DNA of 64,000 bases, taken from positions 33,345-97,344 of the forward strand of contig DASZXH010000053.1 of NCBI GenBank assembly GCA_035545995.1. Reading direction: 5' to 3'. The position numbers and the translations under genes are program-made. The stretch is from Verrucomicrobiia bacterium (GTDB lineage Bacteria > Verrucomicrobiota > Verrucomicrobiia > Limisphaerales > UBA11358). Below, one piece after another: positions 22,724-34,983 of this stretch (positions are counted from its first letter, which is position 1; the number at the start of each line of letters is the position of its first letter). The notes under the pieces are model-generated. The model was not told the DNA's origin and did not search any database. It saw only the letters and a list, made by a program, of their open reading frames with translations.

Positions 22724-23467
22724 TTAGCGCCGAATTGCGCCATCTGCCGTCATTGGCGCAACGAGCGGGAAAATATCGCGTTGCAGACAAAATGAAACGT
22801 CGTCGCGCAATTCGGGAATGGCCAGCAGATGCCGCGCGTTTTCTGAATTTGCAACGACTGCCGTCAAGGTGGATTTCGATTCGGTGTAAAATCTCAAAGC
22901 GATTTTGGCGGAATCGGAAACGATGGGGCGGGCGTCCGCGCGAGCCGCAAGCAATTCAATCAATGCGCCGGCGGCGAGAATATCTTCGTCAGCTTTATTT
23001 TCGCCCGTGCCGGCGCAAATCAGCAAAACATTTTCAGGATTATTTTCCCGAAGAAATTGCGCCGTTGCGTTCAGATTCAAAAATGAAGACGCCAGAACCA
23101 TTTTTGCGCCGAGACAAGTGCGCAAGGCTCGTGTGCCGTTGGTCGTGGTGGAAACAATCGTTTTGCCGTGAATTTTTTCTGGAATAAATTCGCGCGGCGA
23201 ATTGCCGAAATCGAAATCAATTCCATCGGCGCGGATTTTTACCCCTTTGCGTTCACCGGCCAGCAAAACGTCTGGTCGTGTTTTTTTGATTTGAAGCGCC
23301 TCGGAAATTTCGCTGACGGGGATGATTTCCTTCGCGCCGTTGTGCAGCGCGGTCACGAACGTGCTGGTGGCGCGCAGCACGTCGAACACGACGCACGCAG
23401 TCGCGCGCAAATCGCATTGGGCGAGCGCGGGCAATTCCGCTGGCGTCAGGATGGTTTCAATTTTCAT
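22724..23467 (-). CDS. 2-phosphosulfolactate phosphatase (ComB) family protein
   Basis: 247 aa. VVFDVLRATSTFVTALHNGAKEIIPV and GERKG... are typical of the ComB family. Confidence 0.8.
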   Translation of the reverse strand: MKIETILTPAELPALAQCDLRATACVVFDVLRATSTFVTALHNGAKEIIPVSEISEALQIKKTRPDVLLAGERKGVKIRADGIDFDFGNSPREFIPEKIHGKTIVSTTTNGTRALRTCLGAKMVLASSFLNLNATAQFLRENNPENVLLICAGTGENKADEDILAAGALIELLAARADARPIVSDSAKIALRFYTESKSTLTAVVANSENARHLLAIPELRDDVSFCLQRDIFPLVAPMTADGAIRR

Positions 23468-23517: not shown

Positions 23518-23958
23518 CTACATATTAGGCCGCTGCGTATCCAATGGAATAAGAGCGTGCCATCCTGCTTTGGCTCGACTGCGAACGCCCTCATAATGTT
23601 TTGGCAATGCCAATAAAGCCTGCGGAAGCAATTCGAGCAACTGACTTCGGATGCTCTCATAACTGGCAGGCGTAATGTCGAACTCTCCTGGTGCGCTGGC
23701 AACAAGACCCGGAAGCCTGCACCAACCAGTCAATGCAGGCTTGCCATCTCTCATAGGAACATCTGAAAACCCAACGGAAATGTTGACGTAAAATCTAAGT
23801 GGGCTGTCGGAAGAATTCCACTGCGAAGACTGAAACTCCACCTGCTGCATCACCGTGTCAATCTCTCGCCGAAAACGCTGCCGCTCTTTTGTAAAGCCGT
23901 TTGGCTTGAAATAGGCGGTGTGCAATTCGGTAAGTAGGCGTTTGAGGATTTCTTGCAT
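23518..23958 (-). CDS. DUF4304-like hypothetical protein
   Basis: Start trimmed to the ATG at 23958 (MQEILKRLLTELH...). FKPNGFTKERQRFRREID...VEFQSSQWN...FYVNISV resembles the DUF4304 pattern as I remember it. Confidence 0.5.
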   Translation of the reverse strand: MQEILKRLLTELHTAYFKPNGFTKERQRFRREIDTVMQQVEFQSSQWNSSDSPLRFYVNISVGFSDVPMRDGKPALTGWCRLPGLVASAPGEFDITPASYESIRSQLLELLPQALLALPKHYEGVRSRAKAGWHALIPLDTQRPNM

Positions 23959-24087
23959 GGCACGAAGCGGCCTAACATTATTGTTTAGCCGCAGTCCATG
24001 CACGCCCGCGCGCATGATTGATTTTTGCAATTACAGTTTTCATCAGGGCTTATGAAAGTTGACCGGCAAATTTTTATCAAGCAAAAG

Positions 24088-24163
24088 CTATTTCAATTTC
24101 GTCCGCATGTAATGGAAAAGATATTGCTGGGCGTAACTGGCGTGCGGGCCAAAATGTGGCGGC
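24088..24163 (-). pseudogene. orphan duplicate of the last ~22 codons plus stop of the ogg-like gene
   Basis: 24097-24163 aligns with 24453-24521 (3 substitutions and a 2-nt indel). It translates to HFGPHASYAQQYLFHYMRTKLK*, versus HFGPHAGYAQQYLFHYMRTKIH* in the intact gene. Confidence 0.75.
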
Positions 24164-24204
24164 GCGGTGGCTTGATTGGGTTTTGATCTGCCCCAATGGG
24201 GCAA

Positions 24205-24385
24205 AATCATTCAGCCCGGCGTTGGCCGATGAAATCGGGCTACGCCGGGTAGCTTCACGAACGGAGAACAACTCTGAAAGAGTTGCATCAAGGGAGGGAT
24301 TTGATTCAACTCTTTTAGAGTTGAGAATATTGTTTGGATGTCAACCCGGCGTAGCCGCTGCGCGTCAACGCCGGGCTGAATGATT
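24205..24385. repeat. 181-bp palindromic (inverted-duplication) element
   Basis: Perfect 20-bp outer arms AATCATTCAGCCCGGCGTTG / CAACGCCGGGCTGAATGATT. Inner matching blocks GGCTACGCCGGGT / ACCCGGCGTAGCC. Twin hairpins CAACTCTGAAAGAGTTG and CAACTCTTTTAGAGTTG. Confidence 0.85.
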
Positions 24386-24443
24386 GAATCCCGTTAGGAT
24401 TCCATTGCAAAATTCTTTGCGTCTTTGCCTCATTGCCCGACAT

Positions 24444-25424
24444 TTAATGTATTTTCGTCCGCATGTAATGAAAAAGATATTGCTGCGCGTAACCGGCGTG
24501 CGGGCCAAAATGCGTGGCGGCAAACTGTTTCAACCGTTTATCTGAAATGCGCCGTCGCGGAAAATAAAGTTGTCGCAACGCGCGTTCCACCCAAACGTCC
24601 ACGGGAAACGCGGAATCGAAGCCGTAGGCGAACAACAAAACGCAATCGGCGATTTTGTGGCCGACGCCGCGCAGTTTCATCAATTCGTGTTGCGCTTCGG
24701 CGTAATCCAATTTGCGGATTTTTTCCAAATCGAATTTGCCGTCAGTGATTTGGCACGCGGCGGCGAGCAAATGCGGCGCGCGAAATCCCATTTTGCACGC
24801 GCGCAATTCGTTTTCGGACAAGGCGGCAATTTTTTGCGGAGACGGAAATGAGAAAAATAAATCGCTCCTCACCCCGGCCCTCTCCTCGTTTGGCGAGGAG
24901 AGGGAGAAATTGCAAGCACGTGTTGCAGGATTGAACGGCGTGGCGGTTTTTCCTTCTCCCCGCTTAAACGGGGAGAAAGTGGCCGAAGGCCGGATGAGGG
25001 GTTCTCCAAATCGCTCGCAGAGCAGGGCGATGATTTGCCGGATTTGGACGATTTGTTTCGTCGAGGACAAAATGAACGAGGCGAGACATTCCCACGGTTC
25101 TTGCCGCAGGATTCGTAAGCCGCGACAGGCGGCGACGGCGCGATTCATCGGCTCATCGTCGGGAAATGTTTTGAGAATTGTTTCCAATTCGATTTCCGTT
25201 TGCAGAAATGCGCGCAGCCAATCCCAATTTTTTTGCGGCGCGACAGTTTCGGCGCAAATGCCCCTTTCAATTTGCGTCAGACGCACATAATTCATTCCAA
25301 TGACACCCACCCAAGAAATTGGGCTGTCAGGACTCCTGACCCAGCGGAATACCTGACCGGAATCGAGCGTCGCGGCCAAATCATAATCGCGCGCAGGCAG
25401 AAAAATTTTAGACACGAATTTCAC
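24444..25424 (-). CDS. ogg: 8-oxoguanine DNA glycosylase (OGG1-type, HhH-GPD superfamily) with a 45-codon in-frame insert
   Basis: N-terminal TLDSGQVFRW, HhH-GPD block LMKLRGVGHKIADCVLLFAYGFDSAFPVDVWV. GTG start at 25424. Confidence 0.85.
   Translation of the reverse strand: MKFVSKIFLPARDYDLAATLDSGQVFRWVRSPDSPISWVGVIGMNYVRLTQIERGICAETVAPQKNWDWLRAFLQTEIELETILKTFPDDEPMNRAVAACRGLRILRQEPWECLASFILSSTKQIVQIRQIIALLCERFGEPLIRPSATFSPFKRGEGKTATPFNPATRACNFSLSSPNEERAGVRSDLFFSFPSPQKIAALSENELRACKMGFRAPHLLAAACQITDGKFDLEKIRKLDYAEAQHELMKLRGVGHKIADCVLLFAYGFDSAFPVDVWVERALRQLYFPRRRISDKRLKQFAATHFGPHAGYAQQYLFHYMRTKIH
24867..25001. mobile_element. 135-bp MITE/REP-like composite element inserted in frame in ogg
   Basis: Terminal inverted repeats CCTCACCCCGGCC / GGCCGGATGAGGGG. 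Internal hairpins CCCTCTCCTCG-TTTGG-CGAGGAGAGGG (24878-24904) and TTCTCCCCG-CTTAAA-CGGGGAGAA (24954-24977). Length is 45 codons. Confidence 0.7.
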
Positions 25425-30382: not shown

Positions 30383-30427
30383 TCATATTTCCAAAACCTT
30401 CTCAAACCGTGTCAGATTTTTCGCGCC
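30383..30427 (-). pseudogene. orphan duplicate of the last 14 codons plus stop of the M24 peptidase gene
   Basis: It translates to GAKNLTRFEKVLEI*, identical to the end of the 33859..34983 gene. The two copies differ at 5 nt, all synonymous. It overlaps the stop codon of the 997-aa ORF by 1 nt. Confidence 0.8.
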
Positions 30428-33858: not shown

Positions 33859-34983
33859 TCAAATTTCCAAAACTTTCTCAAAGCGCGTCAGATTTTTTGC
33901 GCCGCTGGCAGTGACGAGCGCGACATCTTCCAAGCGCACGCCGCCGATTTCGGGATAATAAAGTCCCGGCTCGACGGTGACGACATGGCCGGTTTTCAAT
34001 TCGCCGGTCGAAGTCGCGCCCACGCGCGGCGCTTCATGGATTTCCAGTCCGAGTCCGTGGCCGGTGCCGTGAAAAAATCCTTCCATGCGCCCGTTGCACT
34101 TGCCGGTTTTGTAGCCGTGCTTCACAAAATAATCCTGAACGGCTTTGTGAACTTCCGCCGTTTTCACTTTGGCGCGGATTTTTTCAAACGCGATTTTTTG
34201 TCCCTGCCAGACAGTGTCATAAAGTTTTCGCGCCGCTTCGCTCGCGCGCCCGCGAACGACCGTGCGCGTGATGTCGCCGAAATAGCCGGTCTTTTGTGAG
34301 CGCGGGAAAATATCGAGGATAATCAGCTCATTGGCGCGCAACGGGCCGTAACCGCGTTCGTGCGGGTCGCAGGCTTGTTTGCCGCCGGCGACAATGGTGT
34401 TCGCCGCCAATCCGCTCGCCTGCAAAATCGCGCAGTCAATAATCGCGCGCAACCGTTCGGAAGTCAGTGGTGCACTGCGATAAATCAATTGCCGGCGTTT
34501 GCCGATTTTTGAAAGTTGCAGCGCGCGAATGCCTTCGGCCATGCCGACTTCCGCCATCGTCAGCGCGGCGGAAATTTTTTTCACTTCATCCGCGTTTTTG
34601 AATTCGCGTTTCGGGAAAAAATTCGACTGCGGTTTCAATTTGACGCCCAGCTTTTTCAATTCCCGCGCGAGGCCGAGCGGAAAATTGTCGGGAACGAGAA
34701 CGCGCTGGGATTTTTTCTCTCGCAAAATCTCGCGGATGATTTTGGCGAAGCTGATTTTTTTGACGCCGTCAGCGCGTAATTTTCTTTGATGTGCGCTCAA
34801 TGAGGCGACGCGGCAATGCGGCGCTTGCCGTCGTGCGCGGTCAATTTCCAAATCGCTCATCACGAGCAGCGGGCGTCCGCCGAAATTCAGGTAAATAAAC
34901 GGGTCGGGCACGAACAGGCCGGTGGCGTAAAGCATGTTCGCGTCGCGTTCGCTGTCGGCGACAATGAGCAATGTTTCGGGCAT
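33859..34983 (-). CDS. pepP: M24-family Xaa-Pro aminopeptidase
   Basis: 374 aa. Metal ligands in DIFPRSQKTGYFGDITRT, FHGTGHGLGLEIHE, VVTVEPGLY, GGVRLED. Confidence 0.9.
   Translation of the reverse strand: MPETLLIVADSERDANMLYATGLFVPDPFIYLNFGGRPLLVMSDLEIDRARRQAPHCRVASLSAHQRKLRADGVKKISFAKIIREILREKKSQRVLVPDNFPLGLARELKKLGVKLKPQSNFFPKREFKNADEVKKISAALTMAEVGMAEGIRALQLSKIGKRRQLIYRSAPLTSERLRAIIDCAILQASGLAANTIVAGGKQACDPHERGYGPLRANELIILDIFPRSQKTGYFGDITRTVVRGRASEAARKLYDTVWQGQKIAFEKIRAKVKTAEVHKAVQDYFVKHGYKTGKCNGRMEGFFHGTGHGLGLEIHEAPRVGATSTGELKTGHVVTVEPGLYYPEIGGVRLEDVALVTASGAKNLTRFEKVLEI

Follow-up and report, generated by a model that had tools for sequence, protein, structure and literature searches.

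The ogg locus and its repeated end

We describe a 64,000-nt stretch of DNA from a Verrucomicrobiia bacterium of the Limisphaerales (contig DASZXH010000053.1, positions 33,345 to 97,344), which we call the window and whose positions we count from its first letter. In it, an intact ogg-like gene for an 8-oxoguanine DNA glycosylase is followed by a second copy of its own 3′ end, and the two copies are separated by DNA with no detectable gene. The source genome, G000, has 2.9 Mb and is 93% complete. Other G numbers denote genomes of relatives, C numbers denote contigs, and the comparison set for the genus has 163 genomes. The features at the center of the analysis are, in the direction of the gene:

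24444 to 25424, minus strand: ogg-like 8-oxoguanine DNA glycosylase gene, intact, 326 aa (Pfam OGG_N 1.2e-18, HhH-GPD 8.2e-08)
24453 to 24521, minus strand: S1, the in-gene copy of the ogg end, ogg codons about -25 to -3 (direct-repeat alignment, BLAST)
24444 to 24452, minus strand: new ogg tail ATA CAT TAA (I-H-stop), the first 9 nt of the inserted DNA (S1/S2 comparison)
24164 to 24452: inserted DNA, 289 bp, no detectable gene (absent at the empty sites of relatives)
24097 to 24163, minus strand: S2, ancestral copy of the ogg end, displaced and decaying (alignment, flanks in relatives)
24088 to 24096, minus strand: ancestral ogg tail TTG AAA TAG (L-K-stop), as in the commonest tail, RTKLK-stop
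24031 to 24087, minus strand: ancestral downstream flank or leader, starting CTTTTGCTTGATAAAAATTTGCCGGTCAAC, found directly after the ogg stop in relatives

S1 and S2 align without gaps over 60 nt (24097-24156 vs. 24453-24512, 95% identity, 3 mismatches), and with a 2-nt gap, located at the 5′ edge of S2, the repeat reaches the motif GCCGCCA at 24163 and at 24521. A BLAST comparison of the left and right flanks reports 69 nt at 92.8% identity with an E-value of 2e-22. These alignments agree with a preliminary description of this DNA, made from the letters alone, according to which 24453-24521 is repeated at 24097-24163 with 3 substitutions and a 2-nt indel. The same description held that the downstream copy stays in an open frame with its own stop, and both tails do read as it stated: the intact frame ends in HFGPHAGYAQQYLFHYMRTKIH and a stop, that is, MRTKIH-stop, and the frame of the downstream copy ends in HFGPHASYAQQYLFHYMRTKLK and a stop, that is, MRTKLK-stop, with the stop codon at 24088-24090. 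It also named two observations that would speak against it, the presence of the ~67-nt repeat at many loci unrelated to ogg and a tandem duplication of ogg in related genomes. We find neither. The repeat has 2 copies only in G000, both at ogg, and is not a multi-copy element, and no relative carries a tandem of the whole gene.

The two copies have had different fates. S1 keeps ogg open, and S2 is a dead, decaying relic. Its HAGYAQQ motif, otherwise invariant, has Ser in place of Gly, a change found in none of 43 relatives. The gene itself is widespread, with ogg orthologues in 37 of 41 relatives.

An empty site in relatives

Which of the two ends did the gene have before the insertion? In G023, G012, G005, and other relatives, ogg ends in AAATTGAAATAG (also read CGGACGAAATTGAAATAG) and is followed directly by CTTTTGCTTGATAAAAATTTGCCGGTCAAC, which is the flank found directly 3′ of S2 in the window. 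The tail RTKLK-stop, which is that of S2, is also the commonest ogg tail in relatives (43 of the 120 closest homologues). Because the tail and flank of the relatives equal those of the downstream copy, it is the downstream copy that represents the displaced original end. Moreover, when the window read up to 24453 is joined by script to the window from 24096 onward and aligned to the relatives, the joined sequence is colinear across the junction for 364 nt in G023 (86% identity), 332 nt in G012 (86%), 321 nt in G005 (83%), and in others as well.

Judged by these alignments, the relatives hold the empty site, S2 together with its flank is the ancestral gene end, and the 289 bp were added two codons before the old stop. 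The order proposed in the preliminary description (gene body, then a new end, then the insert, then the displaced old end) finds its support in the empty sites of the relatives and in the ancestral tail and flank that S2 retains. The comparison of the ogg downstream region across related genomes had been suggested there as a check, and the empty sites are what it shows.

Two observations on the surroundings of this junction can be added. After the ancestral ogg stop comes a leader of about 45-110 nt (23975-24087 in the window), which reads CTTTTGCTTGATAAAAATTTGCCGGTCAACTTTCATAAGCCC and continues into a GC-rich, hairpin-like stretch. This leader is kept in genomes whose downstream cargo open reading frames (ORFs) differ, and it may be a common promoter or 5′ leader for whichever gene occupies the slot. 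Within ogg, hairpin repeats at 24867-25001 of the window add about 45 codons in frame (SPFKRGEGK, and further on SSPNEERAGVRS). In most relatives the match to ogg is broken into residues 1-146 and 190-325, so that they are without this insertion; G019, the closest relative, and a few others match continuously across it.

The new tail of ogg

The residues I-H that now close the glycosylase come from the inserted DNA. We compared ogg tails among the best 120 of 5790 homologues, drawn from about 15 billion proteins, and the IH-stop tail is unique among those 120. Its form is canonical. Scoring the residues that follow the conserved K in 113 close homologues, we find exactly two residues in 91 of them (81%), and two residues of which the first is L, M, or I in 84 (74%). 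By our own calculation, random DNA would give a tail of canonical form in about 0.7% of cases, and we estimate from the tail form a likelihood ratio of about 100 in favor of a real allele, with no donor allele found in the genus genomes, the homologues, or the JGI metagenome contigs. The IH-stop tail thus looks like the genuine ogg tail of another allele.

The differences between the two copies are unevenly distributed, with 3 in the 60 conserved nt vs. 5 in the 9 nt of the tail. Since the divergence is concentrated in the tail, two alleles fit better than a duplication in place. Across relatives, the S block shows 1-5 nt differences in 62, and the tails and the downstream DNA are variable. 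A conserved stretch therefore lies immediately upstream of a variable region, which is the arrangement expected of an anchor for homology-facilitated illegitimate recombination (HFIR).

The inserted DNA and its hairpin element

Past the new tail, the insert divides into a palindromic middle part and two unique ends:

24402 to 24443: left unique part of the insert, past the new stop, 42 nt, no match anywhere searched
24192 to 24401: palindromic element resembling repetitive extragenic palindromic (REP) sequences and bacterial interspersed mosaic elements (BIMEs), made of two inverted three-hairpin modules of about 105 nt each
24164 to 24191: right unique part of the insert, 28 nt, ending at the presumed illegitimate joint CCACCGC/GCCGCCA

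The slash marks the joint, the right side of which is given as GCCGCCACATTTTGG. Neither the terminal 51 nt on one side (the 9-nt new tail plus the 42 nt) nor the 28 nt on the other has a match in the genus genomes, in G000, or in the JGI metagenome contigs.

Folded as RNA, the insert reaches -122.7 kcal/mol, with z = -10.2 relative to shuffled sequences, and its inverted arms are 24192-24224/24366-24398, 24238-24250/24344-24356, and 24269-24291/24301-24323. Its short ORFs (40-75 aa) have no match to any Pfam family. Both results agree with the earlier statement that the 289 bp between the copies are non-coding and almost entirely structured. That statement had delimited a 181-bp palindromic unit at 24205-24385 plus two separate small hairpins. 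All three are present, but the unit that is repeated elsewhere is longer, about 24192-24401, and includes both small hairpins. Of the two modules, one is read on the minus strand (about 24298-24403) and the other on the plus strand (24189-24296).

This middle part (about 24192-24401) is the only part of the insert that recurs elsewhere. The element has 4 copies in G000, the three others at 73-82% identity, and matches in 133 of the genus genomes, both as full palindromes of ~200 nt and as single modules of ~100 nt. When 38 modules are aligned, three local hairpins appear, and 11 of their 22 predicted pairs are kept by compensatory changes on both sides. A search of the whole window with Rfam at the gathering threshold reports no family. 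From its structure and distribution, the inserted palindrome behaves like a REP/BIME-like dispersed repeat of the genus, and in the 3′ untranslated region of ogg it may be a putative transcript-end hairpin.

Is the palindrome the cause of the duplication? The preliminary description had considered a very small element that targets gene ends, and had proposed to see whether other copies of the 181-bp element are also bracketed by duplicated gene ends. Mostly they are not. None of the 3 other copies in G000 is flanked by direct repeats within 20 kb, and in relatives about 23 of the 27 copies open to this test are free of them within 1.5 kb. As the other copies are not bracketed, the palindrome is a passenger and not the cause of the duplication, and these flank tests rule it out as the agent.

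The source genome has a single gene for a transposase of the Y1 or REP-associated tyrosine transposase (RAYT) type (C27:42691-43035; a 171-aa open frame, PF01797, 85.9 bits). The gene (region C27:42200-43600) is flanked on both sides by another palindromic family, GCGCCGTAGGCGCGGCATCTTTGTAG...CTACAAAGATGTCGCGCCTACGG, in a layout like that of a REPtron, and this family also adjoins copies of the hairpin module on C78 and C24. In a REPtron of the element's own family, the RAYT gene would be flanked by that family, and this is not what we observe.

The interval between ogg and comB

The displaced end faces a slot between ogg and the next conserved gene, and in the window this slot already has an older occupant:

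23518 to 24030, minus strand: DUF4304-like ORF, older cargo in the ogg-comB slot (Pfam DUF4304 1.1e-08)
22724 to 23467, minus strand: comB-like 2-phosphosulfolactate phosphatase gene, right border of the slot (Pfam 2-ph_phosp 2.1e-65)

At the DNA level, neither G023 nor G012 conserves the DUF4304-like ORF. The gene comB lies downstream of ogg and on the same strand in 64 of 74 informative loci. At these 64 loci, the gap between the two genes ranges from -4 to 2749 nt; it is 30 nt or less in 18 and holds 0.5-2.7 kb of unrelated cargo in 32.

We scanned the genus genomes for extra ogg ends, using the last 59 residues of ogg as the query, and found them in 5 other genomes. In G072, G074, G075, and G146 the extra end lies just downstream of ogg, and in G142 it lies across a contig break. 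The duplications have lengths of roughly 125, 100-125, 90, 54, and (in G142) 230 nt, and the cargo they bracket is unrelated from case to case, with a BD-FAE esterase, a DUF4288-like ORF, a TPR-like ORF, and unknown ORFs. The ogg end is thus a recurrent hotspot, and the scar fits an insertion driven by recombination without an integrase. In G142, the displaced piece of the ogg 3′ end (C28:557-790) is ~230 nt long, has two frameshifts, and is followed by a flank nearly identical to that of the window, and an intact ogg is cut off at the end of another contig (C11:1-170). This looks like a larger insertion at the ogg end that broke the assembly. Two further candidates with contig breaks in the ogg end, G021 and G081, were rejected as a second, GC-rich ogg and a mere overlap of contigs, respectively.

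Two of these cases carry information about the mechanism. In G072 (C6:34087-35070) and G146 (C3:134778-136246), the displaced copy of the ogg end is joined without a gap to a piece of comB, a 5′ fragment that retains its upstream region. The real comB of G072 is further downstream, past a second and different cargo ORF, and the junction in G072 shows only a TT. Because comB fragments sit at these ogg-end copies, an allelic segment running from the ogg end to the comB start, from the same locus of another genome, was added beside the resident one, not swapped for it.

Signs of site-specific integration are missing from these loci. There is no integrase, transposase, or phage gene in or beside the insert, whose neighbors are ogg, the DUF4304 ORF, and comB. 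None of the six ogg-end brackets (G000 and the five relatives) contains a tyrosine recombinase, and in 4 of the 5 relatives there is none on the ogg contig at all; the nearest PF00589 match in G000 is ~96 kb from the insert. The window has no tRNA or tmRNA gene usable as an attachment (att) site, and the ogg-end pattern has 0 matches among IMG/VR viral contigs. Nor is there a constant att core with constant boundaries, the duplications at the ogg end being ~54, 67, 90, 125, and 230 nt long.

Similar scars elsewhere in the genome

A comparison of G000 with itself finds further integrase-free duplications at gene boundaries:

Window 30383-30427 and 33859-33903: pepP scar, 45 nt, 89% identity, copies 3.4 kb apart, at the 3′ end of an M24 peptidase gene (pepP-like)
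C44:12247 and 12926: 76 nt, 3′ end of carB-N, cargo ORF6N
C84:25738 and 26318: 73 nt, gene 3′ end, cargo HicAB
C48:66939 and 67919: 89 nt, gene 3′ end, cargo an outer-membrane beta-barrel
C74:28046 and 28559: 56 nt, gene junction, cargo a secreted-protein ORF
C34:11973 and 12463: 65 nt, 5′ end of a gene, cargo a small membrane ORF
C17:8670 and 9324: 67 nt, 5′ end of ribH, cargo an unclassified toxin-antitoxin-like pair

The cargo of the pepP scar is an ORF of 997 aa for a Big_9/cadherin-like surface protein, with no integrase, and there is no recombinase at the scars on C34, C48, C84, and C17:8670. The duplicated targets of eight similar scars in G000 share no common word of at least 9 nt that could be a core motif. 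One more candidate, C17:31354/31819, was dropped as probably a pair of tandem AHSA1 paralogues.

The C74 scar has a peculiar layout. In this region (C74:28046-28614), the 56 nt that are duplicated run across a gene junction, from the final 8 codons and the stop of one gene through 8 nt into the first 9 codons of a response-regulator gene. The cargo ORF (168 aa) starts in one copy of the repeat and ends in the other, so that the duplicated junction supplies its start as well as its stop. The layout, as of a gene permuted around a circle, hints at a circular intermediate.

How the insertion may have formed

We have to explain an insertion without an integrase, with a long duplication of its target at the 3′ end of ogg, and with a new tail of canonical form. 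The model to which we lean, with modest confidence, is recombination anchored in homology. DNA of a related strain would enter the cell, carrying the conserved 3′ block of ogg, the tail KIH-stop, and a REP-like hairpin element just past the stop. The donor would thus be laid out as ogg ending in RTKIH-stop, then ATGTCGGGCAATGAGG and the hairpin element, and would lack a further ogg end. Homologous recombination through the conserved ogg block would serve as the anchor, and an illegitimate joint, at CCACCGC/GCCGCCA, would connect the far end of the incoming DNA with the start of the resident block. With a linear fragment this would be HFIR; a single crossover of a circularised fragment would have an identical topology. 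As the illegitimate joint would lie upstream of the anchor, the resident end would be displaced instead of deleted. No function encoded by the cargo would be needed. G000 does have the DNA-uptake protein ComEC, which is widespread and does not show competence.

Several observations weigh against this model. No donor, that is, an ogg ending in KIH-stop together with the insert, is found in the genus genomes, among the best 120 of 5790 homologues, or in the JGI metagenome contigs searched with two 24-mers. S1 and S2 both have a rare T at position 8, where 41 of 43 relatives have C, and such a shared rare base would mean that the donor was close kin, that the crossover took place inside the S block, or that the block was duplicated in place. 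GCCGCCA, the putative microhomology at the joint, is shifted by 2 nt from the register. A gene may also have been present in the cargo at first and been deleted afterwards. Finally, linear HFIR, integration of a circle, and a staggered break with fill-in are indistinguishable from one sequence.

The last of these three mechanisms is also the main rival. In a true target-site duplication without homology, two nicks or a staggered break ~67 nt apart would have captured a random fragment of 289 bp and been filled in, both copies would be resident, and the IH-stop tail would be a product of chance. The derived T present in both copies and lacking in 41 of 43 relatives speaks for such a duplication, the donor allele is absent from the genus genomes, the homologues, and the JGI contigs, and like scars occur at unrelated sites of G000 with no common motif. 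On the other hand, a tail of canonical form would arise by chance in only ~0.7% of cases vs. 74% for real alleles, the divergence between the copies is concentrated in the tail, and the cargo of G072 and G146 comes with a 5′ fragment of comB from the same locus, so that the process there was homology-guided. Ku is not found in G000 (93% complete), so that there is no sign of an end-joining system and Ku/LigD end joining is without support. We favor homology-anchored recombination over a blind staggered cut because of the comB fragments, the canonical form of the tail, and the uneven divergence, and consider the target-site duplication unlikely. A diversity-generating retroelement, in which a template repeat is paired with a variable repeat at the 3′ end of a gene, was also considered and rejected: the downstream copy has an adenine at only 1 of the 3 mismatches, there is no reverse transcriptase among the neighbors, and the empty site in relatives is plain.

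The geometry of the locus, with repeats of the attL/attR type at the 3′ end of a gene, is also that of a site-specific island whose attP mimicked the ogg end and which lost its integrase and cargo, so that attL, 289 bp, and attR were left, much like a remnant of a cis-mobilizable element (CIME). Tyrosine recombinases do exist elsewhere in G000, the nearest ~96 kb off. This origin is decidedly unlikely given that not one of the six brackets in the genus has an integrase, that the boundaries of the duplication differ each time (~54 to 230 nt), that no IMG/VR viral contig matches the pattern, and that the cargo in relatives consists of single ordinary genes, which in G072 and G146 has a comB fragment instead of an element end on its right side. 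Of the two options in the preliminary description, that of a remnant of a larger island has no support in the sense of an integrase-borne island, both for the lack of an integrase and variable lengths in the six brackets and for the lack of a motif common to the eight scars. The other option was a very small element that targets gene ends. The palindrome would then be a small mobile element, of the REP type or a miniature inverted-repeat transposable element (MITE), that inserts at gene ends with long target duplications in the manner of IS1634. The palindrome has terminal inverted repeats, it is dispersed through the genus, and a Y1/RAYT-like transposase is present in G000. But its other copies lack flanking repeats (0 of 3 flanked in G000, ~23 of 27 unflanked in relatives), the repeats on either side of the RAYT-like gene are of another family, and 42 and 28 nt of unrelated sequence lie outside the element here, besides the 9-nt tail. 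This explanation is largely refuted, and we regard it as very improbable. Least credible of all is the decay of a tandem ogg duplication, with the downstream copy as the remnant of a second whole gene. The longer fragment of ~230 nt kept by G142 could be seen in this light, but no relative has two tandem ogg genes, S2 is preceded not by decayed ogg but by unique DNA and a REP-like element, and the ancestral flank after S2 makes it the original end, not a second copy.

Comparison with known systems

Descriptions of insertion with long target duplication go back to 2000 (Nobusato 2000, Gene 259:99; Furuta, Abe and Kobayashi 2010, NAR 38:2428, PMC2853133). The class is characterized by repeats longer than 30 bp, an empty site, and the absence of mobility genes, with repeats that often span start or stop codons, and its mechanism is unknown (PMC2853133). 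Its cases were defined on restriction-modification cargo, and DNA breakage by the cargo itself has been suggested as the driver (PMC2853133). We applied the criteria of Furuta et al. (repeats >30 bp, an empty site, an insert <20 kb, no mobility gene, a repeat that is not multi-copy). The ogg locus has unique repeats above 30 bp (67 nt) that align once with the empty sites of G023, G012, G005, and others, it has no mobility gene, and its host gene survives. Unlike the restriction-modification cases, its cargo is gene-free and its new tail points to an allelic donor. The locus is therefore in the class by its footprint, and not among the restriction-modification cases.

The displacement of C-terminal ends at rhs loci and in the effector-immunity arrays of type VI secretion systems (T6SS) is a second parallel (Jackson et al. 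2009, BMC Genomics 10:584; Kirchberger et al. 2017, Sci Rep 7:45133, PMC5361080). There too one finds a conserved body, a new 3′ end, new cargo, and an orphaned old end, with a conserved stretch upstream as the proposed anchor, an illegitimate join at the other end, and no integrase; HFIR as a mechanism is due to de Vries and Wackernagel 2002 and Prudhomme et al. 2002. In the rhs and T6SS systems, diversifying selection acts on the displaced ends, which are variable toxin tips, and an immunity gene makes up the cargo, whereas at ogg both ends code for nearly identical peptides of a housekeeping repair enzyme and enclose non-coding cargo. With ends this similar and cargo that is non-coding, the ogg scar looks like a by-product and not an adaptation.

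The insert also resembles CIMEs in being small, recombinase-less, and bounded by direct repeats of a gene 3′ end. These are, as reportedly described by Pavlovic and colleagues in 2004, integrase-less elements at gene 3′ ends in streptococci, flanked by att sites. CIMEs derive from, and are mobilised by, integrative and conjugative elements (ICEs) with a defined att core. For the ogg insert, by contrast, no cognate ICE or att core is found, and the repeat boundaries vary between cases. As for its cargo, the likeness to REPs and BIMEs extends to short hairpin modules, often in inverted pairs, to an intergenic position past stops, and to dispersal with compensatory changes. It differs from them and from REPtrons in its low copy number (4 in G000), in the association of the sole Y1/RAYT gene with another repeat family, and in having no Rfam family.

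Implications

The ogg scar belongs to a known class of insertions, and its distinctive point is the gene-free cargo. This cargo is a natural control for the idea that breakage by the cargo drives such insertions. It favors host recombination over a cargo-driven process, an argument weakened by the possible later loss of a gene. The canonical replacement tail and the comB fragments in relatives likewise point to host recombination.

A bolder reading, which we think unlikely, is that the Limisphaerales, and perhaps the Verrucomicrobiota and the candidate phyla radiation (CPR), have a dedicated host pathway that adds DNA seamlessly at gene boundaries by means of circles that carry the boundary, of the kind at which the C74 scar hints. 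If this were true, the ogg scar would be its empty-cargo product, and nothing would be needed from the cargo.

Annotators should expect orphan fragments of gene ends and slightly altered C-termini at hotspots of this kind. The practical value is modest, and the joint between ogg and comB would be usable as a marker locus for the turnover of cassettes in Limisphaerales populations.

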